In this document: positions 2,663 through 49,134 of the stretch, one piece after another | Position numbering within the stretch: the first letter of the stretch is position 1 | How the letters are laid out: each line of letters begins with the position of its first letter | Virus record (IMG/VR): IMGVR_UViG_3300045391_006539 | Reading direction: 5' to 3' (one strand) | From: a virus | Taxonomy: Duplodnaviria > Caudoviricetes | DNA length: 64,000 nucleotides | Position numbers and translations under genes: made by a program | The notes under the pieces: generated by a model | What the model was told of the DNA's origin: nothing | Databases searched by the model: none | The model's input: only the letters and a program-made list of their open reading frames with translations

Positions 2663-3662
2663 GTGGGTCAAGGAAGCGCTCGCGCCAGCAACCCTCGCGG
2701 CGATGAGCACGGCAGTCAAAGGCTTGGGGGCCGGGGCTGGGGTGGGCGGCCTGCTCGGCGCTGGTGCCGGTGGAGCCCTCGGGGCAGTCCAAGGGTACCG
2801 GCACCAGCGCCAGCACGGAGCCGACGTCGGTCACGCCCTCGCCGGGGGTCTGAGGGGAGCGCTTCCTGGCATCGGCGCCGGCGCCCTGGCAGGTGCAGGG
2901 GTCGGTGGTATCGCTGGGGCTTTGAAGCCAATGCAAGCGCTGGCCATGGGTCAGAAGCCCGGTCTCTTGCAAAGCGCGAGCCACTTCGGCCAGCGTCAAG
3001 TCCATGCCCTCACGGGCGTTGGCGGGGCCCAGTACGCGCGCTCGGTGGGCGGAGGCGCTCACGATGCCGTCGAGCGCTACGAGGCAGCCAGGAAGGCCGT
3101 GGACGCCGTTCACGAGCTGCACCCAGACCGGGTCCCGGCCATGCGCGAGTTCACCAAGGCCCGACAGTGGCGCGACGCCGCGCTCGAGAGCGAGCGTCAG
3201 GGTATTACCAGCTTGCCGGGCTATGCCAAGGCGCTCTGGAAGAACCCGGCCGATGCCGTGGCGGCTGGAGTCAAGGACCAGTGGCACAGCATGGGTACTG
3301 GGGGACGGGCGCTCATGTATGGCCTGCCCGCCCTCAGCGTGGCGGGCGAGCTCGCCCACTCCGAGGACGAGTCGGGTAAGGGCAAGGGCCGCTTCCAGCG
3401 CGCGGGTGAGATGCTCGGCACGGCGACGGGCGCCCTCGCACCTTTGCCCATCGTCGGTGACCTCGCCTTTGGTGGGGCGCTCTCGGGCAGCTTGGGACAG
3501 GTCGGCAAGCGTCTCGACACCCGCTCCGCGCTCCGCAATTTGCAGAAGCGTCGGGGTGAGCAGGTGTCGCTCCCGCCCGAGCCACGCGGCGAGACGACAC
3601 CGAGCGAGTACATCGCGAGCGACAGGGCCTCAGGGGTCATCCCAGAAAGCGTCACGGCATGA
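2655..3662 (+). CDS. Glycine-zipper-rich putative internal virion/ejection protein
   Basis: VKEA followed by GLGAGAGVGGLLGAGAGGALGA and further GxxxG arrays; overlaps the portal start. Confidence 0.55.
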   Translation: MPEWVKEALAPATLAAMSTAVKGLGAGAGVGGLLGAGAGGALGAVQGYRHQRQHGADVGHALAGGLRGALPGIGAGALAGAGVGGIAGALKPMQALAMGQKPGLLQSASHFGQRQVHALTGVGGAQYARSVGGGAHDAVERYEAARKAVDAVHELHPDRVPAMREFTKARQWRDAALESERQGITSLPGYAKALWKNPADAVAAGVKDQWHSMGTGGRALMYGLPALSVAGELAHSEDESGKGKGRFQRAGEMLGTATGALAPLPIVGDLAFGGALSGSLGQVGKRLDTRSALRNLQKRRGEQVSLPPEPRGETTPSEYIASDRASGVIPESVTA

Positions 3663-23147: not shown

Positions 23148-23388
23148 GACCGAAGCTCAGAAACCGCTTCTCGAAGACGAGGTCTTTCAGCATCCAGCCC
23201 GCCTCCTTCGTGTGCCAGCGCATGAAGTGACGCACCATGGGTCTCATCTTGACGGGGATGACCTCGCGCGCCTGGAAGTAGATTAGGTATCCGTCCTCCA
23301 GTGTCTGGATGACCGGGTTGTAGAATATCTCGTACGCTCTCTGTAGAGAGGCGAGCAGGTCTTCCACATAGGTATCTACTTTCATCAT
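23101..23388 (-). CDS. Small hypothetical protein
   Basis: 95 aa of globular-looking sequence filling the gap; its start overlaps the terminase start at CATG. Confidence 0.5.
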   Translation of the reverse strand: MMKVDTYVEDLLASLQRAYEIFYNPVIQTLEDGYLIYFQAREVIPVKMRPMVRHFMRWHTKEAGWMLKDLVFEKRFLSFGLMPREQRRACRRTHP

Positions 23389-27090: not shown

Positions 27091-28332
27091 ATGGAAGACC
27101 TACCCACCGCACTATTGACGCAGCAAGAGCATGCGCGAGCGAGAACTGGCGAGGAACTGGAGACGTTCGGCAAGCATGCCTCGAAGCTCTACCTCCGGGG
27201 AAAATGTGAGACGCTGAGCGAGGCTGTGGTCGAGGCGGTGAAGACCGCTGGTCTGTCCCCAGAACAGGTCAAGCGCGTCGTCGAGTTCGCCAATACGAGC
27301 ACCTACCTCGAGAAGTTTGCGAGCGAAGACTCGACCCACAAGGTCATCAACTTCGAGGGCGGCCCAGCCTCCTTCCCCGACGTCATCCGCGACCTCAATG
27401 ACGGTGGTGGGGGCTCGGTCTACGATTCTGCCCAGGGCGACTACTCGCTCCCACCCCCAGACGTGGAGAAGATGGCGGCTGCCAACCTCGCTCGGCTGGG
27501 GTTCATGGACGGGAAGCTGGCGAGCGCCTTCGCCGTCGACGAGATTCCGCTGCCCTATGGAGAGCCACTGCGTGACGCCATCGACATGAAGGACAAGCTC
27601 GCGAGTCTCTACGATGAGGCCATGAGCGAGCTCGGCAGTCTCGAGACCCGCTATATGGACCTCTGCGACCTGATGTTTGGGCAGGTCAAGCAGGCCTCGC
27701 TCGAGGGCGTGCCACTCGGTCAGCTCGTTCCGCTCTTTGCATCGGTCACCGAAGACCCCGCCTTCCTCAAGGCGGCCTTCGCCGAGCTCGGTCCGCGCCT
27801 CGTGGACAACCGGGTCTTCGAGACTCACGATGCCATGAGCGAGTCGCTCATGAAGACCGCGGGCGCCGGTATGCCCAATCCCCAGCACCCCCTCGTCGGT
27901 ATCTACGCGGACTTCTGCGAGACGCTCGCGAAGCTGGCCGCCACCCGCCAGGTGAGCGAGGACGTCGTCGCCAACCTCGACACGTTGCAGACCTTCATCA
28001 AGAAGGCTTCTGCGGCCACGGCTGGCGAGAGCGTCGGCAAGGTCCTCGGTGCCATCCCAAAAGCCTGGAGGGCCGTCACGGGAGCGGCGGCCCACGCCTC
28101 GCAGCCTGTTGAGCAGTTCGTCGAGAAGGCGGTGGGTCCCAATGCGGCATGGGCAGCGAGCCGCGCCGTCAAGTACGCCCCTCATGCGGCGACGGCACTC
28201 GCGGGCGAAGAGGTCTACCAGCGCGCCAAGGCCAACCCCGCCATCCAGGGCGCGGAGAACTTCGTGCTCTCGCGTCTCCCCTATACTCGTCAGAACATGG
28301 CGCGACAGTACAACTTGCAGATGGGTTACTGA
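27091..28332 (+). CDS. Head-associated protein with many KxA motifs
   Basis: SD GGAGG; VKTA, EKFA, EKMA, GKLA, VKQA, MKTA, AKLA, IKKA. Confidence 0.7.
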   Translation: MEDLPTALLTQQEHARARTGEELETFGKHASKLYLRGKCETLSEAVVEAVKTAGLSPEQVKRVVEFANTSTYLEKFASEDSTHKVINFEGGPASFPDVIRDLNDGGGGSVYDSAQGDYSLPPPDVEKMAAANLARLGFMDGKLASAFAVDEIPLPYGEPLRDAIDMKDKLASLYDEAMSELGSLETRYMDLCDLMFGQVKQASLEGVPLGQLVPLFASVTEDPAFLKAAFAELGPRLVDNRVFETHDAMSESLMKTAGAGMPNPQHPLVGIYADFCETLAKLAATRQVSEDVVANLDTLQTFIKKASAATAGESVGKVLGAIPKAWRAVTGAAAHASQPVEQFVEKAVGPNAAWAASRAVKYAPHAATALAGEEVYQRAKANPAIQGAENFVLSRLPYTRQNMARQYNLQMGY

Positions 28333-28804: not shown

Positions 28805-30493
28805 ATGCTCAAATGTAGTCACTTCCGGGCCGAGACGGAGCATGGACCCTCTGCCATCCCGCTCTTCGGCAAGGCCGACGCGTACTTCGAGAAGACCGCG
28901 TCGGCCCAGCTGCTTCCGGAGGTGAGTCGGTACATCGCTCAACTCCGTCCGCTGCCCAACTCCCAGTACGTCTTGGTCAACGCCATGGGCGCGGGCGAGT
29001 ACTACGGCAGCAACGTCAACGGGGACTACTTCACGGAGGCGTGCCTCATTCACAAGCCCGACGAGTGGACTGGCAATCCCCTGTTCGACCGTGCTCTGGC
29101 GGCAGCATGGCCCTATGGGTTCCCCACCTTCTATCGCGCTCATCCATACGCGCATCATCGAAACAAGGACAGCAAACGCGCCTTCGGAGAAGTCGAGCTC
29201 GCTGCCTGGAACCCGCACATGCGCCGGGTCGAGCTCGTCACCCGGGTAGACCAGGACAAGTGTGCCGAGTTCGGTGGGCAGGGTACCTGGGACAAGCTCA
29301 GGACAGGGGCCTATCCCGATGTATCGATGGGTACCAAAGTCCCTTTCGACACCTGCAGCATCTGCCTCGACTGGAAGACCTACGAGGAGGCGCTCGCGAG
29401 CTTCGACCCAGTGCGGCACAAGCACCCGGGTCTCGCTGCGCTCGAGTGGCACAAGACCAAGCGGCCCATCCAGGGCCTGTCCATCACTCGCCAGGACTAC
29501 TGCGAGCATGCCCTGCGGCAGATGAACCGCATCTTCCCCGATGGGAGGAAGTCATTCGTCTACAACGACTGGCCGGCATTCTTCGATATCAGCTTCGTCT
29601 TCATCGGCGCGGACAAGACGGCGAAGACGATGTTCTTCATCTTCTCGCAGGGTGTACCGCACAGTGCGGTACGTTCGAGCGCCGAGCTCGCCGATGACCT
29701 GGGGGTCGAGGAGCCGGGGGAGAAGACCGCGAGCGTCGATGACCTGCTGCTCGAACAGGCTTTCGGCAAGCTAGCGCGGCAGAAGCGTGGGGAAATCGAC
29801 AAGAGGTACGTGCCCACGCAGTTCGCGGGCAAGGCCGTGCCCCTCATCACTGGGTGTGAGCCCGACCTACCCAACGAAACTCTCGACCAGCTCTCCTCGG
29901 TGGCACCCGCGAACGTCCTGTCCACGCTCGGCGGGATGGGAATTTTGCTCAAGCCGAGGGAGTTCCAACGCCTGATTCTCACCCAGCTCGGCCAGCGTGA
30001 GTTGGCGGATGAACTCGATGAGAATGGTGAGGTCATCGAGCAGACGGACGAGCGAGAAAACATGGGCGTGGATGCCAAAAACTTCCAACCCGCGCTCGCC
30101 GAGATGCTCTCTGGACTCATCGCCCAGCGTTCCCTTTTAGCCCCCGAACTCGAACAGCGCGCAGTCATGTCGTCGCCGTCCGAGAAGACCAAGAGCGCAC
30201 GAGCGCCTTCCCATTCCAAAGACCTGCTCGATAAGATTGCCGCTGCCTATAACGGCTACCGCCAAGACGTGATGGAACTGGTCGCTCACTCGCAACACTT
30301 GATGGCTCTGGCGGGGACTACGAGTCCCCTGCAGAAGCTTTCATCGGTGCCTGCCAGTGAGGTCTTCACCCCGCTATCGGCTGCATACCTCCGGTATGCT
30401 TACGCCGATGAGTTCGGTGGGGCGAGTACCACTACCAAAACGGGCGGCAGCCGGCGTGGAGGAGGGTCTCCCTCCGAAGAACACGTGGGGTGA
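28805..30493 (+). CDS. Prohead (capsid maturation) protease, HK97/assemblin-like, with zinc-finger insertion
   Basis: NVNGDYF, HHRNKD...AFGEV, DVSMG (Ser nucleophile-like), CSIC..YCEH, FFDISFVFIGAD..A; lies upstream of scaffold and capsid genes. Confidence 0.7.
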   Translation: MLKCSHFRAETEHGPSAIPLFGKADAYFEKTASAQLLPEVSRYIAQLRPLPNSQYVLVNAMGAGEYYGSNVNGDYFTEACLIHKPDEWTGNPLFDRALAAAWPYGFPTFYRAHPYAHHRNKDSKRAFGEVELAAWNPHMRRVELVTRVDQDKCAEFGGQGTWDKLRTGAYPDVSMGTKVPFDTCSICLDWKTYEEALASFDPVRHKHPGLAALEWHKTKRPIQGLSITRQDYCEHALRQMNRIFPDGRKSFVYNDWPAFFDISFVFIGADKTAKTMFFIFSQGVPHSAVRSSAELADDLGVEEPGEKTASVDDLLLEQAFGKLARQKRGEIDKRYVPTQFAGKAVPLITGCEPDLPNETLDQLSSVAPANVLSTLGGMGILLKPREFQRLILTQLGQRELADELDENGEVIEQTDERENMGVDAKNFQPALAEMLSGLIAQRSLLAPELEQRAVMSSPSEKTKSARAPSHSKDLLDKIAAAYNGYRQDVMELVAHSQHLMALAGTTSPLQKLSSVPASEVFTPLSAAYLRYAYADEFGGASTTTKTGGSRRGGGSPSEEHVG

Positions 30494-30519
30494 CGATAAC
30501 CACGGTTGAGGAGTTTGGA

Positions 30520-31326
30520 ATGACCATGAATCAAGATTTGCGCCAGATGTTCGCGGGCAGCGACGAAGCCACCGTGAAGCAGGCCGAGGCCGAGATGTTC
30601 GCGAAGCTCGCTGCGGCGGAAGGCGTCAACCTCGCAGACTTCACCGATGAGCAGGTGCAGCAGCTCTGGGACCATACCTTCGGCAAGCATGCCGAGGATG
30701 GCGAAGAGGCCAAGAAGGACGACGAGGAGAAGGACGACGACGAGAAGAAGGAAGCGGCCGCGGCCGAGCACCAGCAGAAGCTCGCGTTCGCCAACGAAGT
30801 CGCCAAGGCCGAGCACCTCGGTCAGGTGATGGCCGAATCTTACGTGCAGCACCTCAACAAGCTGGGCCACGACCTGTCGAAGGAAGCCACCAAGGCGCTG
30901 CCGGGTCCGAGCATGCGTGGTGCCTTCGGTCGGGCACTGACGAGCGTCCAGCAGGCGGCTCGCAAGGGCAAGGGCGCCGTCGAGCGCGGCGCGCGCAAGG
31001 CGGGTGATTTTGCCAAGGAACACAAGGGCAAGTTCATCGCTGGTGGCGCGGGTGCTGCTGCGGGTGCCGGTGGGGGCTATGTGGCTGGCAAGAAGAAAGA
31101 GAGCTCGGCGCTCTCCAACATCGACCAGCTGGCGCTCGAGCACGCGGTCAAGCTCGCGAACGACGCAGGTCTCGACCCCGAGGTGGCGGCGACGCGTGTG
31201 ACGAGCGTCGCGAACCTGGGTCTGGACGAGTCCGACAAGGTCGCCTCCACGCTGCAGGAGCAGGTGCACGTCCGCGCGCTCGAGTATCTCGAGGCGGCGG
31301 GTTACCCCGTCACCTGGCCCGAGTGA
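30520..31326 (+). CDS. Scaffold-like head protein with KxA motifs and an internal Gly-rich cationic peptide
   Basis: SD GAGGAG; acidic helices; VKQA, AKLA, GKHA, KKEA, QKLA, SKEA, VKLA, DKVA. Confidence 0.65.
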   Translation: MTMNQDLRQMFAGSDEATVKQAEAEMFAKLAAAEGVNLADFTDEQVQQLWDHTFGKHAEDGEEAKKDDEEKDDDEKKEAAAAEHQQKLAFANEVAKAEHLGQVMAESYVQHLNKLGHDLSKEATKALPGPSMRGAFGRALTSVQQAARKGKGAVERGARKAGDFAKEHKGKFIAGGAGAAAGAGGGYVAGKKKESSALSNIDQLALEHAVKLANDAGLDPEVAATRVTSVANLGLDESDKVASTLQEQVHVRALEYLEAAGYPVTWPE

Positions 31327-31360: not shown

Positions 31361-32779
31361 GTGGCAGCGACGTTCAAGATGGCGGCGTCTATGGGTTCTG
31401 GTCTACCAGACCCCCATAAGGACGTCGCTGCTTCCAACCCCATCCCGACGATGGCTGTCGAGAACAAGCCAGCGCCGGGGCAGACGGGTCCCAAGGGTCT
31501 AGCCCCGAGGACCACGTACTCGCGAGTGAACACGGGGCAACCTCCCGTCATGGACGCTGGAGCATCCGCCCAGAAGAGTGGCCCCAACATGGGGATGAGT
31601 TTTCTGCCTGCTAAAGTGGCAGCGGATAGAGGTTTTATGGCTACGTCATTTCAAGAGCGCCCCACGCTGCAGTCGATGGTGAAGGCAGCCATGGAGGGGG
31701 CGACGCATCGTCTGTCTGTCAACATCGAGGCAGGGCGTCAGGAGCAGACTCGCAGCGGTGTGAAAACCGCGAATGCGAAGGCGTCTTCGTCCTCCCCCGG
31801 TCACGTATCTACCGAGCTTTGCCAGAAGCTCGCAGGTGCACTCGGTTTCATCAGCCAGCAAATCGTCAAGGAAGCGGAGGGTCCCGGTGAAGGACCGGGC
31901 GCATTGACGGTGATGCAGGCGACGAGCAACGAGAAGCCCCTCGAGCCGGGCGAGAGTGGCCAGGCGACGGGCAAGAACCAGCCGCCGCGCACGCCCGAGA
32001 CTCAGAGCGAGCAGGTGCAGAGCGGCAACGCTGGTACGGGTCTCGAAACCAATGACGACATGATGCACGGCGAGCAGCCGGTGGAACCCATCAAGAACGC
32101 CTCGGCCTTGGTGCAGGCCAACCTGGCCAAGGTGTCCTCGGCACTCGGCGCGGCCATGGGTGTGCGCAACGCCGTGCGCAATACGGCCGTCGATGCCGTC
32201 TCCAAGGGCAAGGCCCTTGGTCAGAAGGGTGTCGACTGGGCGAAGGCCAACCCCAAGAAGGCCATCGGCATCGGCGCAGGCGCCGCGGCCGTGGGCGGTG
32301 GTGCTGCTCTCGCCTCGCGCAAGAAGGAGGGCTCCGCCCCCATCGCGCTCATCCGGAAGCTGGCGGAAGATGCCATCAATCCGGCGCACATCGACTCACC
32401 AGCGAGCGTCAACCCCGCCGAGCCCCCGCCTGGTGCGAGCGCGAGCGAAGAGGGCGTGCCGAGCGAGCCCGGTGACGTGACCAGCCAGAAGCGGATGATT
32501 GCCTCCAACCAGGCAGCCATCGACTACACGAAGCGCGAGGCCAAGGCAGACCCCAAGAAGGACGTCGCCCAGGTCGTGACCGAGCCGCCGCTGTCGAGCA
32601 CGACGGACAAGGTGCTCGAGCAGGCCTTCGATGCCACGGGTCAGGCCGGCGTGAAGATTTCGTCGGCGGGTGGTCTGCGCAAGACCGCCATGCAGGTGAG
32701 CGCCCAGCGCGTCATCCTCGACCGCTTGCTCAAGCAGGCGAGCGCCGACGTGGAGAAGTCCCAGGGCGCGAGCGCCTGA
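31361..32779 (+). CDS. Low-complexity scaffold-like head protein with KxA motifs (possible internal start 31637)
   Basis: 472 aa; VKTA, QKLA, VKEA, IKNA, RKLA, RKTA, LKQA. TGC-TAAAGT and GAGG precede ATG 31637. Confidence 0.65.
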   Translation: MAATFKMAASMGSGLPDPHKDVAASNPIPTMAVENKPAPGQTGPKGLAPRTTYSRVNTGQPPVMDAGASAQKSGPNMGMSFLPAKVAADRGFMATSFQERPTLQSMVKAAMEGATHRLSVNIEAGRQEQTRSGVKTANAKASSSSPGHVSTELCQKLAGALGFISQQIVKEAEGPGEGPGALTVMQATSNEKPLEPGESGQATGKNQPPRTPETQSEQVQSGNAGTGLETNDDMMHGEQPVEPIKNASALVQANLAKVSSALGAAMGVRNAVRNTAVDAVSKGKALGQKGVDWAKANPKKAIGIGAGAAAVGGGAALASRKKEGSAPIALIRKLAEDAINPAHIDSPASVNPAEPPPGASASEEGVPSEPGDVTSQKRMIASNQAAIDYTKREAKADPKKDVAQVVTEPPLSSTTDKVLEQAFDATGQAGVKISSAGGLRKTAMQVSAQRVILDRLLKQASADVEKSQGASA

Positions 32780-33718: not shown

Positions 33719-34834
33719 ATGGTTTCAGGTCGCATGCTCAACGAGTCCTTTGCTCAGAAGCTGAACACGGCTGATGGCAAAGAGAAAGTCGCCGAATTCG
33801 GCGGCGCCTACATCCGGGACAAGCTGCGCGAGGTTTCCTTCGTGCGCAAAATCATCCCCCCGGAGAACGTGACGCGCGCGGATTGCCAGCGCTCCGTCAA
33901 CCACGACACGCTCGTGAAGATTGTCGATATCGAGCCCAAGAGCCGCGCGATGACGGTGACCTTCCGTGGCGCTCCGTCGGCTCGCTTCATCCGCGGCGAC
34001 CGCGCCGAGGTGGCCTTCTTCACCATCTCCAGCGAGATGTTCCAGAAGACCGAGCAGGAGCTCCTCGCCTACGAGATGCCCATCACGAAAATCATCGAGG
34101 AGAACTCGGTGAAGGACATCCAGGAAATCGAGGACCGCGAGTTCGTCATCCACATCGAGGCGGCAGTCCAGGCGCTGCAGACCGAGGCCAACAGCGGCAC
34201 CCCGGCGGCGCTGGCAGCGAGCACCATCGGCACGACGGTGGAGTTCTCCATCATCAAGGGCGAGCTCGCCCGCGCCGATTCGGCAGACACGGCGACGGTG
34301 CAGCCCATCCAGCGGCCCGACATCGTCAACCTGTTCAAGCTGCTCGACACCAACCGTCTGCGTTGTGAGCGCCTGCTCATGACGGAGCCGGACTGGGACG
34401 ACCTGCTGCAGTGGACGGTCGAGGACTTCGGCGACAAGATTCAGTCCGAGACGGCCATCGATGGCTACAAGTACAACACGGTGCTGGGGCGGCCTTACAT
34501 CCGCACCATCAAGACGGACATCCTGCGTCCGGGCAACGTGTATGCCTTCACGAAGCCGGAGTTTTTCGGGAAGTTCTACGTCCTGAACAACACCAAGTTC
34601 TACATCGACAAAGTCGCGAACACCATCACGTTTCAGGCGTGGGAAGACATCGCGATGTCGGTCATCAACGTGGCGTCCGTGCGCAAGCTGGAGCTCTACT
34701 CCGGCAATGCCAACCCGAACGCGGGTAACCAGAGCCTCATCGCCAACTTCGTGCCGGTGGACGAAGACCAGCTCGGCGCAGTGAACAACCGCGTGAGCGC
34801 CGGCCTCAAGTTCCCGTCGGTGACCCAGTACTGA
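33719..34834 (+). CDS. Major capsid protein (HK97-fold, inferred)
   Basis: 371 aa with very biased codon usage; follows protease/scaffold/decoration genes and precedes a terminator; IRDKLREVSFVRKIIPP N-terminus; helix EIEDREF. Confidence 0.75.
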   Translation: MVSGRMLNESFAQKLNTADGKEKVAEFGGAYIRDKLREVSFVRKIIPPENVTRADCQRSVNHDTLVKIVDIEPKSRAMTVTFRGAPSARFIRGDRAEVAFFTISSEMFQKTEQELLAYEMPITKIIEENSVKDIQEIEDREFVIHIEAAVQALQTEANSGTPAALAASTIGTTVEFSIIKGELARADSADTATVQPIQRPDIVNLFKLLDTNRLRCERLLMTEPDWDDLLQWTVEDFGDKIQSETAIDGYKYNTVLGRPYIRTIKTDILRPGNVYAFTKPEFFGKFYVLNNTKFYIDKVANTITFQAWEDIAMSVINVASVRKLELYSGNANPNAGNQSLIANFVPVDEDQLGAVNNRVSAGLKFPSVTQY

Positions 34835-37119: not shown

Positions 37120-37581
37120 ATGGCACTCGCATTTCGAAAGTTCTCTCGGCTCGAGCACGCGACGTCGTTTCTCCAGGGTCACCTCGTCGGAAGCGTGAGC
37201 TTGCTGCGCAATGGCAACTCGCTCTATTTGCATGGCAAGACCCTCATCTTCACGACGCCGAGCGCCACGGTGACGTTCGATGCGACTCCCGATGGCACGC
37301 AGATTCCTCTCACGCTCGCGCAGGTGAAGTCCCAAATCGAGGCGGGCGCGTCGGGCGTGACGTGCCACTTTAGCGAAGGCCGGCTCGACCTGTTCATGGC
37401 GACGCCCGGGTCTATCGCGCTCGACAAGGACGGCACGGCCAATGCCCAGCTCGGCTTCAGTACGACGGCGGACAGCTCGGCGGCGGTCTATGCCGCGCCG
37501 GGTGGGTCTGCGCCAGCGCTCGTCCAGATTGTCCCGGACACGGGCAGCAACTCCTTCGTGGTGGTGACCGATGATGCATGA
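37120..37581 (+). CDS. Virion structural protein with a sheath-insertion-like motif
   Basis: TLAQVKSQIEA...GTANAQLGF resembles repeats in the sheath N-terminal region. Confidence 0.5.
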   Translation: MALAFRKFSRLEHATSFLQGHLVGSVSLLRNGNSLYLHGKTLIFTTPSATVTFDATPDGTQIPLTLAQVKSQIEAGASGVTCHFSEGRLDLFMATPGSIALDKDGTANAQLGFSTTADSSAAVYAAPGGSAPALVQIVPDTGSNSFVVVTDDA

Positions 37582-40318
37582 GTTCGAACGCGCCCTTTCC
37601 CGCAGTATTCCTCTCGGGGTCTCCGCTGGCTTCTTCCACCGCATCAAGACGGCGGGCTGGGGGGAACCACCGGATGAGACGGGCGCCCTCGAAGGCGCCT
37701 TTGCCGCGCCCATCGAGCAGGTCATCGCCAAGCTCACCGAAGTGGCGGCGGCGAAGTTCCAGCTGATGGTGGCCTACCATGTCTACGCCGAGAGCATGCG
37801 GGGCGTGGCGCAGCATGCCTGCGCCGAGGTCTTCCACGAGCACGCCGAGCAGGAGCGCGCGGCCGGTGAGGCTTACCTCAAACGCACGGCCGTGCTCGGC
37901 AGTGGCCCCGTCCACCTACCCGAGGTGACGACGCCGCCGGCGAGTGCAGACCCGGCGGGCATTCTCATGCTGCTCGCCCGCGCCGAGCAAGAGGCGATTG
38001 CCGCCCAGCGCGAGCTCAAGGCGCTCGTCGGGGAGGACAACCCCCTCTCGTTCCAAATCGAGCAATTCATGGTCGAGGACCAGCACCACCTCGACGAGTG
38101 CTGGCAGATGCTGCCGCAGGACGCCGTTCGTACGCCAGTCATCGACACGGCCCCTGCCGGTATGGTAGAGGCACCAAACGTCGAGGAGGAGACTCCGGCG
38201 CCTGTCGAGGCTCCCGCAGTGCCGAAGTCTCCGTCCAAGACTGCCGGCGCCCTCGCGAACATCGAGAAGACCGTCTTTGACGGCAAGCGTCTCGGAGCCA
38301 AGCCCTTCCAGTCCTTCAATGCTTTCGGCACGCCGAGCAAAGAGGTGCTGATGGCGCTACCGGCAGGTGGCGCAGCCGTGGGCGCGGGTCTAGGCTCGCT
38401 CAGGTCTCTCGTACAGAGCCCCGAAGACAAGGAGCAAGTCCTCGAAACGGGCGGCCCCGTCAGTCAGTTCAAGACTCGGCACCCCGTCATCGCGGGTGCT
38501 CTCGGCGGCGCAGCCCTCGGCGGCAGTGCTGCGCTCGCAGCCAAGGGCCTCATGCGTGGCCGCTCGCCACTCGACCCTACGGGTGGCGTGAAGCCGGCGA
38601 GCGTGCCGCATCTCGTGGGTGGTGCGGGTCTATTCGCAGCGCCATCGGCGGTGGGCATCGTCGACGAGGCACTCGCCCGGAAGCGGGACGAGGCGCTCGC
38701 CAAGAGCGCGAGCATTGCCGAGCTCGGGCGCAAGATGCGTCGTGGTCTGGGGCGCTACGGCGAGCTCGTCTCGGGGAGCAACGCACGGCGCATGGGTCGC
38801 GCGGCACAAAATGCGATGCTCGACGCGCAGCGGGTGGCTGGAAGGGGCGTCGACCAGGCAGCGCGCAGGGGCAAGCACCACGTGCGAACCCACGGCGAGG
38901 AAATCGTTGGTGAGTTCAAGCGTCGCATGGGCAAGGCGACCGAGCTCGGGGACGCGGCGGTCAAGGAGTACGACCTCTCGCGCAAGGTTCAAATCGGTAC
39001 GGGTGCCGGCGCCGTGGGCGCGCTCGGTACGGCCGCGGCCGCCAAGAACCGCTCGGACATGAAGAAAATCGAGCGCACGAATCAGCGGCTCAAGACCGCT
39101 TTCGTCGTCGCGCTCGAGAAGCTCGCCCTCGCTCCGAGCGAGCCTGGCTTTGGCAGCGACCCGTCGGCGGCGCCCATGCCCGGCAACGAGCCCTCGTTCG
39201 TGCCCCAGCCCAGCATGGAAGCCCCCGGTCCCCAGCCGCCCATGGCGCAGCCGCCGGGCACGGGGCAGTACGCTCCGGTCAACTATCTCGAGGCGGAGCT
39301 CACGGGGCGTCGCGTGCAGGAAGCCAACGAGGCCAACTTCTACCGCGCCAAGGCGGACGAGGCGAGCACGCAGGTCGCCAGTATGGGCGAGCAGGTGCAG
39401 TCCATTCAGGGTCAGCTCGACCAACTCTCGGCGCAGGCTGCCGAGAGCCAGTCGCAAATCATGGCCGCCAACGAGGAGGCCATGCGCGCGAACGACCAGA
39501 TGCTCAACCAGGCGACCCTCGCTGCGCGCATGCGCATGGGCATGCAACAGCTACGCGCCCAGATGATGGAAGTCGCGAGCCAAGACCCCGAGCAGCTGGC
39601 AGCGGCTGCCGGTGGCCCGACGCCGATGGACGTCGGACAACAAGCACAGATGGCGGGCGCTCCGGCGGCGGCCCCTGCGGGTTCTCCTGAGGGAGCGTCA
39701 GACCCGACGGGTGGCGCCGGCGGAGCGCCACCGGGTGCTCCGGCAGAGCCCGGTGCAGACCCGGGAACGCCAGCAGCCTCACCCGACCCGGGTGCACCCC
39801 CAGGCTCGCCGTCGGCGGGTGCGGGTGGCCCTCCAGGCGGTGGTGGCGGTGAGGGTGGCGAATCGCAGAAGAGCGACGGCGGTGAGTCGACCGACAAGAA
39901 GAAAGACACTGCCGAGACCACCGTGTCCATCAAGAAGGGCTCGGCGAAGACGGCCGGTCTCATGAACATGCCGAACATGGAGCAGGAGCTCCGGCACATG
40001 GCACCCTACGTTGCTGCTGGCGTGGGCCTCGGTGGGCTCGCGGGCGCGTACGAGGGCTATCACGAGGGGGACAAGGTTCCGAACCTGCAGAAGCGCGTGA
40101 GTGAGCTGCAGGGGACGTTCGGCAAGTCGCTCGAGCTCGCACAGACCCAGGTCGAGCTGGCGAAGGCGGAAGAGGCACGCGCCAACCCGGGCAAGAGCGC
40201 CCTGCGTGGGGGTCTTCGTGGTGCGGCCATCGGCATGACGGCGGGTGCCATCACTCCGCAGGCCATCGGCGGCGTGCGTGAGCTCGGCAAACACATCAAG
40301 CACCTGAGGGCAAACTAA
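37571..40318 (+). CDS. KxA-punctuated polyprotein: ferritin-like domain, glycine zippers, coiled coil, Pro/Gly linker
   Basis: Four-helix ferritin pattern (AYHVYA, FHEHAEQE, KRTAVLGS, AEQEAI, EDQHHLD) between IKTA and SKTA; later AKSA, LKTA, EKLA, AKTA. Confidence 0.7.
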   Translation: MMHEFERALSRSIPLGVSAGFFHRIKTAGWGEPPDETGALEGAFAAPIEQVIAKLTEVAAAKFQLMVAYHVYAESMRGVAQHACAEVFHEHAEQERAAGEAYLKRTAVLGSGPVHLPEVTTPPASADPAGILMLLARAEQEAIAAQRELKALVGEDNPLSFQIEQFMVEDQHHLDECWQMLPQDAVRTPVIDTAPAGMVEAPNVEEETPAPVEAPAVPKSPSKTAGALANIEKTVFDGKRLGAKPFQSFNAFGTPSKEVLMALPAGGAAVGAGLGSLRSLVQSPEDKEQVLETGGPVSQFKTRHPVIAGALGGAALGGSAALAAKGLMRGRSPLDPTGGVKPASVPHLVGGAGLFAAPSAVGIVDEALARKRDEALAKSASIAELGRKMRRGLGRYGELVSGSNARRMGRAAQNAMLDAQRVAGRGVDQAARRGKHHVRTHGEEIVGEFKRRMGKATELGDAAVKEYDLSRKVQIGTGAGAVGALGTAAAAKNRSDMKKIERTNQRLKTAFVVALEKLALAPSEPGFGSDPSAAPMPGNEPSFVPQPSMEAPGPQPPMAQPPGTGQYAPVNYLEAELTGRRVQEANEANFYRAKADEASTQVASMGEQVQSIQGQLDQLSAQAAESQSQIMAANEEAMRANDQMLNQATLAARMRMGMQQLRAQMMEVASQDPEQLAAAAGGPTPMDVGQQAQMAGAPAAAPAGSPEGASDPTGGAGGAPPGAPAEPGADPGTPAASPDPGAPPGSPSAGAGGPPGGGGGEGGESQKSDGGESTDKKKDTAETTVSIKKGSAKTAGLMNMPNMEQELRHMAPYVAAGVGLGGLAGAYEGYHEGDKVPNLQKRVSELQGTFGKSLELAQTQVELAKAEEARANPGKSALRGGLRGAAIGMTAGAITPQAIGGVRELGKHIKHLRAN

Positions 40319-41097
40319 TGCTGGACGCATTTCTGGAAGTCGCGTGTGGCCGTGAGAAGATGGCCGCGCAGAAGACCCGCAACATGGAGCTGCTCGGCAA
40401 GCTCCCGACCGAGACCCTGCAGAAGATTGCCTGCGGCGGACTCGGCGGGTACGGTGGAGAAGGCTGGCTCGAGAAGTTCCAGGGCAGTCCCTTGCTCGGA
40501 CAGGCCATCGCCATCGAGAAGGAAGAACTCGCCATCCAGATGGAGGAAAGTCAGCGGCGTGCTCGCGAGCGCGAGGTGCGAGAGAGCATGGGCTCGTGGG
40601 AAGACACGGCGGCCAAGCGCGACGAGCTCGCCGTCAAGCGACGTCTTTTGGAACTCGAGCTGGTGGGCGGACCCTCCGCTGTCAGCCCCGCGCCGGCTGT
40701 CGAGGAAGACCCGGGGCTCGAGCCCGAGCTCGCTGCTCCCGCCGAAGACCCGGCGGTCGATGTTGCCCCGAGTGAGGGGGCAGCAGCTCCGCCGAAGGGT
40801 CTACGCCCTCACTCCACGGAGGTGGGGAACGGTGGCGCAGACCCGGGTGCGGAGGTAGACACACCCGAGACCGACCCGAGTGAGGCGGCAGACCCACCGA
40901 AGCCCAAGCCCAAAGCCGAGGCCAAGGAGAAGACTGTCGAGAAGACCACCGAGAAGCCGGTGCCGGAGAAGATTGACGTCAAGACCTCTGAGAAGGAGGC
41001 GGCTGCGCGCTTCAAGTTCGCTGCGGCTCGCTTGCGCTTCTCTCAGGCCGTGAAGGAGGCGCAGCCCGCGAACGGGCAGCGTCCCTTTCACCGCTGA
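40318..41097 (+). CDS. Head-associated KxA protein; probable +1 frameshift extension
   Basis: MLDAFLEVACGREKMA, QKIA, EKEA, FKFA, VKEA; ends CCC TTT CAC CGC TGA. Confidence 0.7.
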   Translation: MLDAFLEVACGREKMAAQKTRNMELLGKLPTETLQKIACGGLGGYGGEGWLEKFQGSPLLGQAIAIEKEELAIQMEESQRRAREREVRESMGSWEDTAAKRDELAVKRRLLELELVGGPSAVSPAPAVEEDPGLEPELAAPAEDPAVDVAPSEGAAAPPKGLRPHSTEVGNGGADPGAEVDTPETDPSEAADPPKPKPKAEAKEKTVEKTTEKPVPEKIDVKTSEKEAAARFKFAAARLRFSQAVKEAQPANGQRPFHR

Positions 41098-41848
41098 GAA
41101 GACCGCCGGCGTCGCCGCTCCCGCCACGGGTCTCCGTCGGGGGCTGCAGCTCATCTCGGGCAGCCGTCTCGGGCAGCTCGAGCAGGCAGCGGCGCAGCGG
41201 GGCGCGGTGGCCGCGCGGCAGTCGGGTCTCGCCAACCACCACTACCGGGGCGCCTTCCACGCCGCCGACGAGGCGGCGAGCAGCCGCCTCTACCAGCGCT
41301 CGCTCACGAGTGCTCGGGGCTCGGCTCGGACCCATGGTGCCGCCGAGCGCGCCCAGCGCGCGCTCGGGGCGGAGCGGGCCGCAGTGCAGGGCGCTCGGGG
41401 TACGGCGCTTCGGGCTGCTGGCGCCGGGGCGCTCGGGGTGGGTGGAGGTGCGATGGGCATGAACGCCGCCGAGGGTGGCCCCAAGCTCGCGAGCCCCCTG
41501 ACGGCCACCGTGGCCTCGGGCAAGCGCCTGGTCTCGGGGGCGGTCGACGCCCTCGGGAGCACCATGGCAGCGGCTCCCAAGGCCATCTCGGGCGTCGTGC
41601 CCAAGGCGGTCGCCAGCGAGGCAGCGACCGCCGCGGGTAGCCGGCAGGCGGCGCGCGCCGTGGCGAACGAGCGTCGGGTGGCGCAGGCTGCTCGAGCAGC
41701 GGCACCCCCCGTGCCACCACCGGCCGCACCGGTGGCAGCCCCGGCCCTCGACCCGCGCGCTCGCGCACGGCGCATCATCGGCGGCGTGGGTCTCGGGGGT
41801 CTCGGTCTCGGCGCGGTCGCCGCCCACGGTCAACCCGAGGCACGCTGA
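41090..41848 (+). CDS. Ala/Arg/Gly-rich extension in the +1 frame (frameshift product candidate)
   Basis: Frame open from 41054; encodes AEKTA|GVAAPATGLRRGLQLISGSRL upstream of the first GTG (41207). Confidence 0.55.
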   Translation, partial: TAEKTAGVAAPATGLRRGLQLISGSRLGQLEQAAAQRGAVAARQSGLANHHYRGAFHAADEAASSRLYQRSLTSARGSARTHGAAERAQRALGAERAAVQGARGTALRAAGAGALGVGGGAMGMNAAEGGPKLASPLTATVASGKRLVSGAVDALGSTMAAAPKAISGVVPKAVASEAATAAGSRQAARAVANERRVAQAARAAAPPVPPPAAPVAAPALDPRARARRIIGGVGLGGLGLGAVAAHGQPEAR

Positions 41849-44057: not shown

Positions 44058-47000
44058 ATGAGCGTCCAGCTTGCGCAGCCAGGGGTAGAAATCATCCAGG
44101 AGTTTCAGGCTGCGAGTCCCAGCATCATCACGCCGGCGCTCTTGCCCAACGTGGTCGGTGTCGCCAAGCAAGTCGTGGGACTCAATGTCTCCGACGGTGC
44201 GGGTGGTACGACGCTCAACCCGGACGCGCTACTCCAGCTGCCTGCGCAGTTCACGGCACTCGCCGGTAGCGGTAACCCCAAGGTCTACTCGGGACTCGAT
44301 GGTCTCGACCTGGTTTTCTCCGTCAACAACGGCGTCGACATCACAGTCACCTTTGCGGGCAGCAGTCTGTCCGTCGACGACGTGGTGGCACAGGTCAACG
44401 CGGAACTCACGAGCTCGGGTGTCTCGAGCGTCATCGCCGAGACCTTGGGTGATGAGGGCAACTGGACCCTGCGCACCATCGGTACTGGGTCTTTCCAGAC
44501 CATCGTCGTCAAGGCGACGAGCGATTCGGCGGTGCTCACGGCCTTTGGCATTGGCGCAGGCAAGACCTACGCGGGACTCACTGTCTACAACCAGTACGAA
44601 GTGGTGGTGCCGCCAGCGAGTCTGCCCGACCCGCGTGACAACCTGGCAGAGCTCGCCGTCGAGCAGGACAGCATCCGGGTCTTCTTCTCGCTCGGCGGGT
44701 CCGCGGGGGTGTATGAAGCACTGCGCACCGAGGCCTTCCTCAAAAATGGCGAGGTCAATGATGCGGCCGTCATCACGGGCAACGTCTCGCTCGCAGGCCT
44801 GACCCTGCCGGGTGACATTGGTACGGGCACGTTGATGATTTCGGTCGATGGCGGCGCGGCCCAGACCGTCACTTTCAGCAACCCAGCCAACCCCGCCGCC
44901 ATCGTCAGCCAGATTGCCGGGCAGCTCACGGGTGCGACTCCGTCCCAGTCGGGCAACTTCCTGCGTCTCACGACGACGAGTCTCGGCGCCGATGCCTCCG
45001 TGACCATCACGGGCGGCTCGGTCGCGAGTACGCTCGGTGTCTCGGGTCTGACCGATACGGGCGAGAGCATCCAAGCCATCGACGACGGTGATGGTGATTC
45101 GCTCACGAGTCTGCTCAAGTTCTCGGCCGAGAGTTTCACGGCGAGCGCCACGGCGGCGGTGGTGAGTGCCTTCACGGCAGCGACCAATCCTGCCGATGGT
45201 ACGACCCTCATCCTCTCCGATGGTGGGCAGCCACAGACCATCGTCTTCGACGGCGTCGCGGCCTTTGCCGATATCCTCGCCCAAATCAACGCGGTGGTGG
45301 GCACGGTGGCAGGCGGCAAAATCACGGCGAGCGACGCGGGTTCGAGCAAGCTGCGCCTCACGCACTCGGACACGGGCAGCGACTCGGTCATCAAGATTCT
45401 GGGTGGCACGGCACTGTCTGCGCTCGACCCGAGTACCCCGACGCTGGTGGTCGGCACCTACCGGGGTACGGCCAACGTGCCACTGCCGGGTGATGCGCTC
45501 TACATCGATGGCGCTTTCTACGCCAACATCACTCAGGTGGCCCCGGGTGCAGTCGCGACCAACCTGAAAATCGACAAGCTCGTGCCGGTGAGCACGGACG
45601 TCGGCCGCTACTACTACATCGTGGCCAAGGGTCTACCGACGGCGAACCGTCCCGACCCCAATCTGGTGGTGGACGCAAACGGCAACGTCATCCTCAAGCC
45701 GGAGCAGTTGCGCGACGTCAACGGCAACCCGACGTCCGTGACGGCGCCGATGTACTTGTCCTACTCGGCGGTGCGCAAGGACGTCTCGGCGAGTGCCAAC
45801 CAGCCGGGTCTACTGGTCTTCGACGACACGGCTCAGCTCGAGGAAGTGCTCTCGCCGGTAGACTCGACCAACCCGCTCGCGCTCGGTCTGTTCTTCGCCC
45901 TGCTCAACGCACCCGGCGCGCAGGTGACGGGCCTCGGCGTGGATGAAATCAGCGACGATGCGCCCTACGGCACGCTCGACGCTTTCAGCCGCGCCGCGGG
46001 GTTTCTCGAGGGCAAGGAGGTCTACGCCATTGCGCCGTTGACCCACGACCCCTCGGTGCACCAGGTCTTCAACACCCACGTCTCGGTGATGAGCTCGCCC
46101 TCGAACAAGGCCGAGCGCGTCGCCATCATCAACGTCCAGACTCCGACCACCAAGCCTCACACGTTGGTGGCGAGCGGTGTCGGTGACCGTGCGAGCTCGA
46201 CTACGTTCGACACGGGTATCTCGAACCTGACGGCGCTGGTCTTGAACCAAGGCATCACGCCGACCGGCACCATCCCCGCCGATGAAGGTCTGTTCCTCGA
46301 CCTCGCGAGTGATGGCAACCGCTACTCCATCGAGAGCATCAGTGGTGACTCTGTCACCCTGCGCACGAGCTTCGACGCGGGCGAGAACGACGACGGGTTC
46401 TACACCGCTGCAAACCTCGCCTCGACCGTGGTGCAGACCGCCTTCACGGTCAGCGTCCGGGGTGCAGACCTCACCATCGCTGGACTGCCCGACCTCAATG
46501 GCATTGCCGACACGATTGCCACGACGGGTCGCGGCTATGGCAACCGCCGATTGTGGATGACGTTCCCCGACCAGGTGGGTGCGACCGTCAACGGGCTCGA
46601 GAGTCTGCTGCCGGGTTTCTACGCCTCGGCCGCCATCGCGGGCATGGTCGGGCAGCAGCCGCCGCAGCAGGGCTTCACGCGCTTCCCGATGGCTGGCTTC
46701 ACGCGTGTGGTGGGCAGCAACGACCGCTTCAGCACGACGCAGCTCAACGTGATGGCAGGTGGCGGCGCCTACATCCTCGTCCAGGAAGCCCCAGGCGCAC
46801 CCATCATCAGCCGCTTCGCCATCACGACGGACCTCACGTCCATCGAGGTGCGGGAGACCAGCATCACCCGCATCCTGGACTTCACGGCGAAGTTCTTGCG
46901 GCGCTCGCTGCTCAACTTCATCGGGCGCTTCAACATCACCCAGGGCTTCCTCGACACCCTCGGCAACGTCATCGAGGGTCTCGGCCAGTTCCTCATCGAG

Positions 47001-47132
47001 ACGGGCGTCCTGCTCGGCTTCAACCTGAACCAGATTCAGCAGGACAAGGACGCGCCGGACACGGTGCTCATCGATGTCACGGTCGAGGTGCCCTACCCCT
47101 GCAACTTCATCCGCCTGACGCTGGTCATCTGA
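44058..47132 (+). CDS. Tail sheath protein
   Basis: 1024 aa; N-terminal QPGVEIIQE; C-terminal sheath domain (TTDLTSIEVRETSITRILDF...FIGRFN...VPYPCNFIRLTL). Confidence 0.85.
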   Translation: MSVQLAQPGVEIIQEFQAASPSIITPALLPNVVGVAKQVVGLNVSDGAGGTTLNPDALLQLPAQFTALAGSGNPKVYSGLDGLDLVFSVNNGVDITVTFAGSSLSVDDVVAQVNAELTSSGVSSVIAETLGDEGNWTLRTIGTGSFQTIVVKATSDSAVLTAFGIGAGKTYAGLTVYNQYEVVVPPASLPDPRDNLAELAVEQDSIRVFFSLGGSAGVYEALRTEAFLKNGEVNDAAVITGNVSLAGLTLPGDIGTGTLMISVDGGAAQTVTFSNPANPAAIVSQIAGQLTGATPSQSGNFLRLTTTSLGADASVTITGGSVASTLGVSGLTDTGESIQAIDDGDGDSLTSLLKFSAESFTASATAAVVSAFTAATNPADGTTLILSDGGQPQTIVFDGVAAFADILAQINAVVGTVAGGKITASDAGSSKLRLTHSDTGSDSVIKILGGTALSALDPSTPTLVVGTYRGTANVPLPGDALYIDGAFYANITQVAPGAVATNLKIDKLVPVSTDVGRYYYIVAKGLPTANRPDPNLVVDANGNVILKPEQLRDVNGNPTSVTAPMYLSYSAVRKDVSASANQPGLLVFDDTAQLEEVLSPVDSTNPLALGLFFALLNAPGAQVTGLGVDEISDDAPYGTLDAFSRAAGFLEGKEVYAIAPLTHDPSVHQVFNTHVSVMSSPSNKAERVAIINVQTPTTKPHTLVASGVGDRASSTTFDTGISNLTALVLNQGITPTGTIPADEGLFLDLASDGNRYSIESISGDSVTLRTSFDAGENDDGFYTAANLASTVVQTAFTVSVRGADLTIAGLPDLNGIADTIATTGRGYGNRRLWMTFPDQVGATVNGLESLLPGFYASAAIAGMVGQQPPQQGFTRFPMAGFTRVVGSNDRFSTTQLNVMAGGGAYILVQEAPGAPIISRFAITTDLTSIEVRETSITRILDFTAKFLRRSLLNFIGRFNITQGFLDTLGNVIEGLGQFLIETGVLLGFNLNQIQQDKDAPDTVLIDVTVEVPYPCNFIRLTLVI

Positions 47133-48378: not shown

Positions 48379-49134
48379 ATGGCCGGTAACTACAGTGATT
48401 GGGCTCCATACACCAACTACGTCCAGTCGGGTATGGTGGACGGGGCGTACGCGAACGCCGGGTTCACGCTGCTCGCCGCAGGCCCGCCACGCATCGCCAA
48501 CATCGGCGGTGCGGCTGCCTTTGCACAGTCCCTCAATGGGCAGGGGGCGAATCAAATCGTCTTCCCCATCGGCATCGTCCAGAACTTCAGCCTGAGCCAC
48601 AGCCGCAACTTCTCGCGCATCTTCGAGATTGGCTCCGAGCGCAGCTACTTCATCGGTGGCCGCACCATCGGGCAGCTGGGTCTGGCGCGCATCTACTACC
48701 ACGGTGCGTCTCTCCTGCGCGTGCTCTACGCGTACTACCAGGACCTCTTGCCGCCCACGGTGGTGCCGGCGATGTTCCCGAATGCGGGCGCGTCGGTGAT
48801 GAGCAACCCGCACGACGTGGTCATCCCTCCGGGATACGAGAACCTGTACATGAACCTGGCCTCGGACTTGTTCGCGCAGCCCGTGGGTATCATGATGTAC
48901 GTGCGTGACGTCAACCAGGACGCCCTGGGCGCGATGTACTTCGAGGCCTGCTACCTGCCGAATCACAACTGGCAGACCGACAGTCAGGGCGTGCTCATTC
49001 AGGAGAGCGTCTCGGTCCAGTTCGAGCGCGCGGTGCCCGTCGCCATCTCGGCGCTGCAGCTCATCTCGAGCGCCAACCAGAATGCGGGTGGCGCGAACCT
49101 CTCCGAGACCTTCATGGGCATCCCGCAGAGCTGA
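48379..49134 (+). CDS. Tail tube protein (putative)
   Basis: PIGIVQNFSLSHSRNFSRIFEIGS..., YFEACY...IQESVSVQFER; SD GGAG; follows the sheath. Confidence 0.7.
   Translation: MAGNYSDWAPYTNYVQSGMVDGAYANAGFTLLAAGPPRIANIGGAAAFAQSLNGQGANQIVFPIGIVQNFSLSHSRNFSRIFEIGSERSYFIGGRTIGQLGLARIYYHGASLLRVLYAYYQDLLPPTVVPAMFPNAGASVMSNPHDVVIPPGYENLYMNLASDLFAQPVGIMMYVRDVNQDALGAMYFEACYLPNHNWQTDSQGVLIQESVSVQFERAVPVAISALQLISSANQNAGGANLSETFMGIPQS

Follow-up and report, generated by a model that had tools for sequence, protein, structure and literature searches.

The viral record IMGVR_UViG_3300045391_006539 of IMG/VR (Duplodnaviria; Caudoviricetes) was analysed over a stretch of 64,000 nucleotides, referred to here as the window. 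One of its genes, open reading frame (ORF) 37571-40318, encodes a 915-residue protein, P0001, which is best explained as a conserved head-module component of an uncultured myovirus-type phage with a genome of about 200 kb. Residues 1-225 of this protein are shown to consist of three parts: a leader of 28 residues, a four-helix ferritin bundle of the DpsL type preceded by a conserved N-terminal tail, and a linker rich in Pro and Glu. The evidence presented below suggests, without proving, that this phage lineage packs a ferritin-like protein into its capsid. An earlier note on this DNA, made from the sequence alone, had placed a ferritin-like domain between two KTA sites, and its positions are exact: base 37655 starts G29, base 38245 ends A225, and the bracketing sites occupy residues 26-28 and 223-225. 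The features of the gene are as follows (pLDDT, predicted local distance difference test; AF2, AlphaFold2).

37571-40318, + strand: P0001, multi-module head-module protein of 915 residues with an N-terminal ferritin domain (ORF list and translation)
37571-37654, + strand: leader of 28 residues ending in K26-T27-A28 (37646-37654), a candidate capsid-targeting propeptide
37655-37711, + strand: conserved N-terminal tail of the ferritin domain, residues 29-47, motif PPD..G.LEG.F
37712-38110, + strand: four-helix ferritin bundle, residues 48-180 (Pfam, PDB alignment, AF2, Foldseek, ligand map)
38111-38245, + strand: Pro/Glu-rich linker of low pLDDT, ending in the second site, K223-T224-A225 (38237-38245)
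38702-38710, + strand: K378-S-A, part of a recurring [DE]-[IL]-x-K-x-A-S motif, in the variable middle part
39092-39100, + strand: third KTA, K508-T-A (residues 508-510)
39263-39610, + strand: conserved coiled-coil segment with Lpp-like heptads, residues 565-680 approximately
39947-39955, + strand: fourth KTA, K793-T-A-G (residues 793-795), about 120 residues before the C-terminus
39956-40315, + strand: C-terminal module with Gly-zipper hydrophobic segments (family conservation 0.44-0.52, occupancy about 0.9)

The ferritin domain

The Pfam Ferritin family (PF00210) matches residues 52-180 with 42.4 bits, above the cut-off of 24.5 (E 8e-11), and the nearest PDB entries by sequence are the Pseudomonas aeruginosa DpsL PA4880 (8w1d, E 1e-4), a mini-bacterioferritin (9qq4) and the Sulfolobus solfataricus DpsL (2clb). 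An AF2 model of residues 1-215, for which 36 homologues were supplied as input, has a mean pLDDT of 84.5 and four long helices (48-75, 78-110, 128-153 and 158-180) at a pLDDT above 90; confidence is low around residues 29-47 and past residue 181, and the leader is predicted to form two short helices, at modest confidence, after which the pLDDT is low. The best Foldseek matches of this model are DpsL proteins (8w1e, 2clb), followed by 2qqy, 2vzb and 9qq4 and then by ferritins generally. Every top match is a ferritin-superfamily protein, and the bundle has a long B-C crossover loop. The profile and structure searches proposed in the earlier note thus return the ferritin-type four-helix bundle that it had described, with DpsL as the best match. 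The tail formed by residues 29-47 aligns with the N-terminal tail of P. aeruginosa DpsL (PaDpsL, 8w1d), and P34, D35, G38, E41, G42 and F44 are near-invariant across the 162 family representatives of at least 400 residues on which the counts of ligand sets and of the two bracketing sites given here are based. PHROGs and NCBIfam assign no family to the ferritin part.

The DpsL proteins, which include the Bacteroides fragilis thioferritin (2vzb) as well as 8w1d/8w1e and 2clb, are therefore the closest known relatives by both sequence and fold, sharing the four-helix bundle, the N-terminal tail and the intra-subunit position of the ligands. They are free, dodecamer-forming proteins of about 170 residues, unlike the domain in P0001, which forms the N-terminus of a 915-residue phage head-module protein. 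P0001 also differs from DpsL in three of the six metal ligands, in the absence of a predicted short helix in the B-C loop (residues 111-127 of the AF2 model) and in the lack of a conserved Cys pair: C83 and C177 were considered as a thioferritin pair and rejected, as they are not conserved in the family alignment (A1). In the bacterioferritin (Bfr) of Escherichia coli, the haem-binding Met adjoins the second ligand (E51-M52); no such Met is present beside the second ligand of P0001, in which R96 comes after E95. A homodimer prediction for residues 29-190 scored 0.21, against a mark of 0.42, and bears on a dimer in neither direction.

The di-iron site and its history in the family

The published ligands of PaDpsL are E47, E80, H83, E130, E162 and H165 (PMC11150526). 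Their equivalents in P0001, taken from a HMMER alignment with 8w1d, are given below in the same order; residue numbering was checked for K62, E95 and A98, whereas E139, D170 and H173 were read by eye from the same alignment.

37754-37756, + strand: K62
37853-37855, + strand: E95
37862-37864, + strand: A98
37985-37987, + strand: E139
38078-38080, + strand: D170
38087-38089, + strand: H173

The series K, E, A, E, D, H, which the earlier note had read by eye, is therefore correct, and P0001 departs from the canonical set E, E, H, E, E, H at three of six positions (K62, A98 and D170). In bacterioferritin-type sites, as in E. coli Bfr, the first Glu and the first His bind iron 1 only, and the third Glu and the last His bind iron 2 only. 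In P0001 and its clade, both iron-1-specific ligands have been replaced (Glu by K62 and His by A98) and a bridging Glu has been shortened to Asp (D170), whereas the site-2 ligands E139 and H173 and the bridging E95 are kept. Because both iron-1-specific ligands are lost, this domain is probably not a canonical ferroxidase, and would bind one metal at most, with K62 possibly occupying the other site.

The family is large. A word-based search returned 37 close relatives of 600-1060 residues, all with PF00210 at the N-terminus and located on contigs of up to about 200 kb, and an exhaustive profile search of 1.84 billion cluster representatives gave 561 matches at E<1e-3, of which 204 were at E<1e-30. 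Among the 150 best profile matches, almost all are 500-1300 residues long, with the domain starting at residue 2-5. The canonical ligand set is present in 83 of the 162 representatives, the set K/R-E-x-E-D-H seen in P0001 in 66, and other combinations in the remaining 13. This intact di-iron site in about half of the family is the most informative fact to have emerged here, and had been missed by the earlier note. In a midpoint-rooted tree of the ferritin domain, built after removal of the six ligand columns, the two main ligand states are parted by a single change: one clade of 84 members contains 83 canonical sequences (support 0.88), and another of 72 members contains none. Mean pairwise identity is similar within the two ligand-state groups (0.53 and 0.56) which, together with the single change on the tree, indicates that the altered site is old and maintained, rather than decaying. 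The canonical set is most likely ancestral, because it is the set found in the wider superfamily, although the midpoint root does not decide the matter. This single, clean change of E,E,H,E,E,H into K-E-x-E-D-H, with the new set then conserved for long, amounts to a natural experiment in the repurposing of a di-iron site.

A conserved position in the head module

The genes identified around the ferritin gene include the following.

3659-5686: portal-like protein (PHROG portal, weak, E 3e-6)
23387-26266, + strand: large terminase (phrog_675, E 4e-54; PF05876)
33719-34834, + strand: major capsid protein (phrog_2522 major head protein, E 6e-11), with K23-V-A25 (33785-33793) near the N-terminus
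44058-47132, + strand: tail sheath (phrog_279, E 4e-9)

The order of genes is scaffold-like, capsid, small genes, ferritin, genes for proteins of 298 and 296 residues, and sheath. It is kept in the contig encoding P0037, the most distant member found in the word-based search and one with a canonical site, and in 14 IMG/VR viral contigs, with identities of 74-79% for the capsid protein and 41-61% for the ferritin domain. Given this conserved synteny, P0001 is a core part of the head-to-tail module of this phage lineage.

This position bears on another view, in which the domain would be an ordinary auxiliary ferritin or Dps acting in the cytoplasm as a helper against iron or oxidative stress, its fusion to the remainder of the protein being structurally meaningless. 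Both Lactobacillus phages and Gratiaviridae are known to carry stand-alone genes of the Dps or ferritin kind (PMC6669764, PMC8008677), and BFVD contains several viral Dps-like models. This view is nevertheless highly improbable, given that the domain is always fused at the N-terminus of a protein of 500-1300 residues (the only free-standing close relatives found, in the range of 94-301 residues, are P0038, of 245 residues on an 899-bp contig, and a partial match of 104 residues, P0039), that the gene lies in a head-to-tail module in both the P0037 contig and the 14 IMG/VR loci rather than among DNA-metabolism genes, and that the domain stays conserved in the half of the family in which the active site has been lost. 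The stand-alone proteins of Lactobacillus myophages and Gratiaviridae, and gp346 of Bacillus phage G, are likewise phage-encoded members of the ferritin superfamily, but they are small, free and encoded among DNA-metabolism genes, and have no tblastn similarity to P0001; a tblastn search with the whole protein against 50,697 phage records gave no match, and thus no homologue in any cultured phage for which a proteome exists. Phage G gp346, which was detected in particle proteomics (PMC12484599), is a weak fold match to the P0001 bundle in BFVD.

Phage ferritin and Dps genes have so far been described only as small, free auxiliary genes. What is new here is a DpsL-type domain that, in hundreds of metagenomic phages, invariably forms the N-terminal part of a protein at the core of the head module. 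A literature search found no paper on a ferritin domain in a phage head-internal or ejection protein; the term 'DPs' in one candidate paper (PMC12796354) was rejected as a reference to Dps, as it stands for decoration proteins. Three BFVD entries from uncultured Caudovirales annotated as 'Prohead protease' (A0A6J7WPK9, A0A6J7XDU5 and A0A6J7WIS1; 333-763 residues) match the ferritin model with E values of 0.004-0.015, a hint that other phage lineages fuse a Dps-like domain to a head protease.

K-x-A motifs in the head proteins

The two sites bracketing the ferritin domain are of the form K-x-A. When observed counts of this motif were compared with those expected after shuffling each protein 2000 times, the following genes were found to be enriched.

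ORF 985-1827: observed 8, expected 2.1
ORF 19311-21662: observed 15, expected 4.7
ORF 27091-28332: observed 12, expected 3.4
ORF 28805-30493: observed 8, expected 3.1
ORF 30490-31326: observed 9, expected 4.3
ORF 31361-32779: observed 12, expected 5.4

Within the window, this enrichment is restricted to head-module proteins, with none in the RNA polymerase (9 observed, 15.9 expected), the terminase or the sheath. In P0001, the extended motif K[TEVS]A[GSAET] occurs four times, against 0.76 expected from the shuffles (p 0.0085). The motif is also placed in a particular way: K-x-A is found within the first 35 residues of 15 of 56 genes (8.9 expected), and nine of these 15 genes are nearly adjacent, between 27091 and 40318, including that of the capsid protein (GKEKVA followed by EFGG). 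An N-terminal K-x-A is thus common to the capsid, scaffold-like and protease-candidate proteins.

Within the family, the Lys of the leader site (K26) is present in 146 of the 162 representatives and the Ala (A28) in 120, the next residue being A, G, E or S. A second site, K-x-A-[GSAE] within 100 residues of the end of helix D, is found in 131 representatives (52.7 expected) at a median offset of 38 residues, and its setting is fixed: K-x-A-S/A is preceded by a run that is acidic or rich in Pro, and is followed by a basic or hydrophobic stretch. Both bracketing sites lie in non-helical, low-confidence regions of the AF2 model. K-x-A-[GSAE] also recurs nearer the other end of the protein, at about 100-130 residues from the C-terminus; counted over 80-170 residues from that end, it is found in 67 of 134 members (41.8 expected). 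The total downstream of the ferritin part is 490, against 342 expected. The [DE]-[IL]-x-K-x-A-S motif of the middle part recurs across many homologues, for example as ELAKNASA or DIAKNASL. Both bracketing K-x-A sites are a conserved feature of the family, and they resemble the cutting sites of a capsid protease.

The same motifs would have no such role if P0001 were an external neck, collar or fibre protein, its coiled coil forming a trimeric fibre near the head-tail joint and its ferritin bundle serving as an attachment or display domain. The gene does follow the capsid gene and four to five small genes of connector size, and precedes neck- and sheath-type genes, and the central coiled coil is conserved, with Lpp-like heptads (PF04728 LPP, residues 604-649, 30.7 bits against a cut-off of 29.1; column conservation 0.6-0.75 at full occupancy). 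However, the conserved leader has at its end the K-x-A that is also seen near the N-termini of the capsid, scaffold-like and protease-candidate proteins, this motif is enriched in head proteins only, and the Gly-zipper segments and Pro/Gly/Ala low-complexity stretches of P0001 are unlike known whisker proteins. An external location therefore seems quite unlikely.

A candidate prohead protease

A protease that might recognise such sites is potentially encoded upstream from the capsid gene.

28805-30493, + strand: candidate prohead protease, 562 residues, domain at residues 33-307 approximately (28901-29725) (gp19 match, Foldseek)

This gene sits between the packaging and capsid genes, and its product carries EKTA followed by S at residues 30-33 and 307-310, flanking the protease-like domain. 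Residues 63-299 match gp19 of phage G (tblastn, E 2e-7), which is listed as a head maturation protease (PMC12484599), and the protein also matches gp222 of Salmonella phage Arash, which has been detected in the Arash particle proteome. The protein is unusually conserved, with relatives numbering more than 1345 and identities of 55-77% among the best 120; inteins (PF14528, PF14890) interrupt some of these relatives. Two adjacent His residues (H93/H94) and the Ser of V-S-M-G (S150), about 56 residues apart in the alignment of these relatives (A3), are invariant and may be catalytic. An invariant Cys/His cluster in the same protein (C160, C163, C209 and H211, A3 numbering) resembles a zinc site.

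The top three Foldseek matches of the model, the pLDDT of which is only 61, are to T4 gp21 (5jbl; E 0.08, probability 0.85). In VIA-align, the comparison with gp21 gave a Z of 4.7 (root-mean-square deviation 3.7, 135 of 165 residues) and that with the varicella-zoster protease a Z of 3.1, unrelated folds giving similar Z values. Neither Pfam, PHROGs, phmmer against the PDB nor a PDB profile yielded a match, and the leads to this candidate are the fold search and the phage G gp19 match only. The case for a prohead protease of the T4 gp21/assemblin type is, thus, weak but coherent.

Assemblin-fold herpesvirus proteases cut after Ala, as at YLQA-T and VQA-S in pseudorabies virus, and the pseudorabies assemblin frees itself from its C-terminal scaffold part via its own site (PMC4498786). 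A protease with an assemblin fold could therefore plausibly be specific for K-x-A with S, A or G as the next residue. The herpesvirus enzymes cut after Ala with a small P1' residue, and ORF 28805-30493 likewise has EKTA followed by S on both sides of its protease-like domain; the match is one of fold class only, and the conserved Lys at P3 is specific to this phage group.

Proposed route into the capsid

We propose that P0001 is a head-internal precursor, the leader of which is removed, the ferritin module then being released by the prohead protease and staying in the capsid; we would give this explanation about an even chance of being correct. The precursor would be taken into the prohead, where a T4 gp21/assemblin-like protease (the candidate being ORF 28805-30493) would cut after the Ala of K-x-A. 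The leader would be removed between A28 and G29, and a cut between A225 and G226 would separate the ferritin module, of about 22 kDa, from the Gly-zipper, coiled-coil and C-terminal modules that come after it. This module would be retained in the shell alongside the DNA, because a folded module of about 22 kDa cannot leave the shell. In the phage studied here, it would be non-catalytic or bind a single metal, and would most likely act as a stable oligomerising, DNA-associated or metal-binding internal head protein. Given that the sister clade keeps all six ligands, the module probably served in its ancestral form for reactions of Fe(II) and peroxide inside the particle.

Several observations weigh against this explanation. 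The plain K-x-A motif is not enriched in P0001 (8 observed, 7.1 expected from the shuffles), and K-R-A-A is found inside helix B in most close relatives (K-R-T-A in P0001, residues 104-107); not every K-x-A can therefore be a cut site, and if K-x-A is the cleavage code, the helix-B site must be shielded by folding. Known phage proteases of the gp21 type cut after Glu, not Ala, and the protease assignment is itself weak, with a pLDDT of 61, a Foldseek E of 0.08 and a VIA-align Z of 4.7 lying among those of unrelated folds. A tblastn search found no homologue of P0001 in the closest cultured relatives (Arash and Vibrio phages D69, D181 and D148). The location of the gene among neck-type genes and the long coiled coil would also suit an external fibre. 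Finally, the phage is uncultured, and both cleavage and packaging are inferred from sequence.

The packaged module might instead be an effector, loaded into the head in the same way but injected with the DNA and a virion RNA polymerase, and acting in the host: the ferritin module would manage iron or peroxide at the site of entry, or bind or nick DNA, while the Gly-zipper and coiled-coil modules would help in crossing the envelope. The evidence for packaging provided by the leader, the second site and the restriction of K-x-A enrichment to head proteins serves this possibility equally well. In vitro, PaDpsL uses H2O2 to oxidise Fe(II) and also nicks DNA (PMC11150526), the di-iron site is intact in half of the family, packing of an RNA polymerase has been suggested for related phages (Arash proteome), and P0001 has hydrophobic Gly-zipper modules. 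Conversely, the di-iron site is half destroyed in the P0001 clade, making catalysis in the host unlikely here, and ejection is a supposition: a folded 22-kDa bundle, or a 12-mer, would need to unfold to pass through the tail tube. We consider a role in the host to be unlikely.

Comparison with known cargo systems

To our knowledge, processed head cargo is known from T4 and phiKZ-type phages, and no ferritin-fold cargo has been reported for either. The T4 internal proteins and the inner-body and ejection proteins of phiKZ and SPN3US resemble P0001 in having an N-terminal leader that ends in a short shared motif. This motif is found again in many of the head proteins, as well as around the protease, for which the candidate here is of the gp21/assemblin type. 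The cleavage motifs are L/I-x-E in T4 and A/S/G-x-E in phiKZ-type phages, unlike the motif proposed for P0001, K-x-A followed by S, A or G. The head proteins of SPN3US are cut by the SPN3US prohead protease (PMC10052503).

The earlier note had drawn a parallel with encapsulin cargo. Encapsulins are thought to be derived from HK97-type phages, and their cargo is defined by a targeting peptide together with an encapsulin shell (PMC8346489). The likeness to Family 1 encapsulin cargo (Flp/EncFtn, Bfr, IMEF) lies in a ferritin-superfamily protein being proposed inside an HK97-fold shell. The sequence GLGSLRS (residues 273-279, window positions 38387-38407) was considered as a targeting peptide of the GSL-K/R type and rejected: it is not conserved, such a motif being found in three of the 162 relatives, against one expected, and it sits outside the ferritin module. 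The neighbouring HK97-type capsid gene is not that of an encapsulin, but part of a complete tailed-phage module, with terminase, portal-like and tail sheath genes in the same window. The P0001 domain is DpsL-like, rather than a two-helix EncFtn, EncB and EncC are not its closest structural relatives either, and its loading would make use of an N-terminal leader and proteolysis. The encapsulin parallel is thus one of functional analogy, not of membership.

If the domain is packaged, a ferritin-like protein would be present within an HK97-fold capsid, as is the defining arrangement of iron-storing encapsulins, and the proposed phage origin of encapsulins would become testable on a living intermediate. 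Packaging would also point to a role in shielding phage DNA from oxidative damage in soil, either while it is packed or as it enters the host, and would establish a cleavage code, specific for Ala, that is new for the prohead protease of a phage. The broadest possibility, which we regard as unlikely, is a widespread lineage of large soil and environmental phages with a ferritin-type compartment inside an HK97-fold capsid. In about half of the lineage, this would be a working di-iron ferroxidase that protects the genome in the particle, or the initial minutes of infection, from the effects of iron and peroxide. A leader and an Ala-specific, assemblin-like K-x-A-[SAG] code would bring about the loading, and this compartment would be the viral counterpart, and possibly an evolutionary forerunner, of ferritin-loaded encapsulins.

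Other features of the window

The closest cultured relatives of this phage are the Salmonella phage Arash and the Vibrio phages D69, D181 and D148, the capsid proteins of which are 26-30% identical to that encoded at 33719-34834; the latter also has a tblastn match to the Arash major capsid protein. The large terminase (959 residues) has a weak LAGLIDADG match at residues 647-687 (PF14528, E 0.0055) and may hold an intein or homing-endonuclease insert. Weak matches to PHROG portal proteins were obtained for ORF 3659-5686 (E 3e-6) and ORF 28805-30493 (E 0.075); the former is the likelier portal of the two, in which case some 25 kb would separate it from the capsid gene. The ferritin gene is followed by two ORFs (40318-41848), the products of which, of 259 residues and of 213 residues with 29% Ala, resemble further cargo-type proteins; the 259-residue protein has homologues at the equivalent position in the IMG/VR loci. 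Downstream from the sheath, ORF 48379-49134 encodes a protein of 251 residues that contains no lysine and may be the tail tube.

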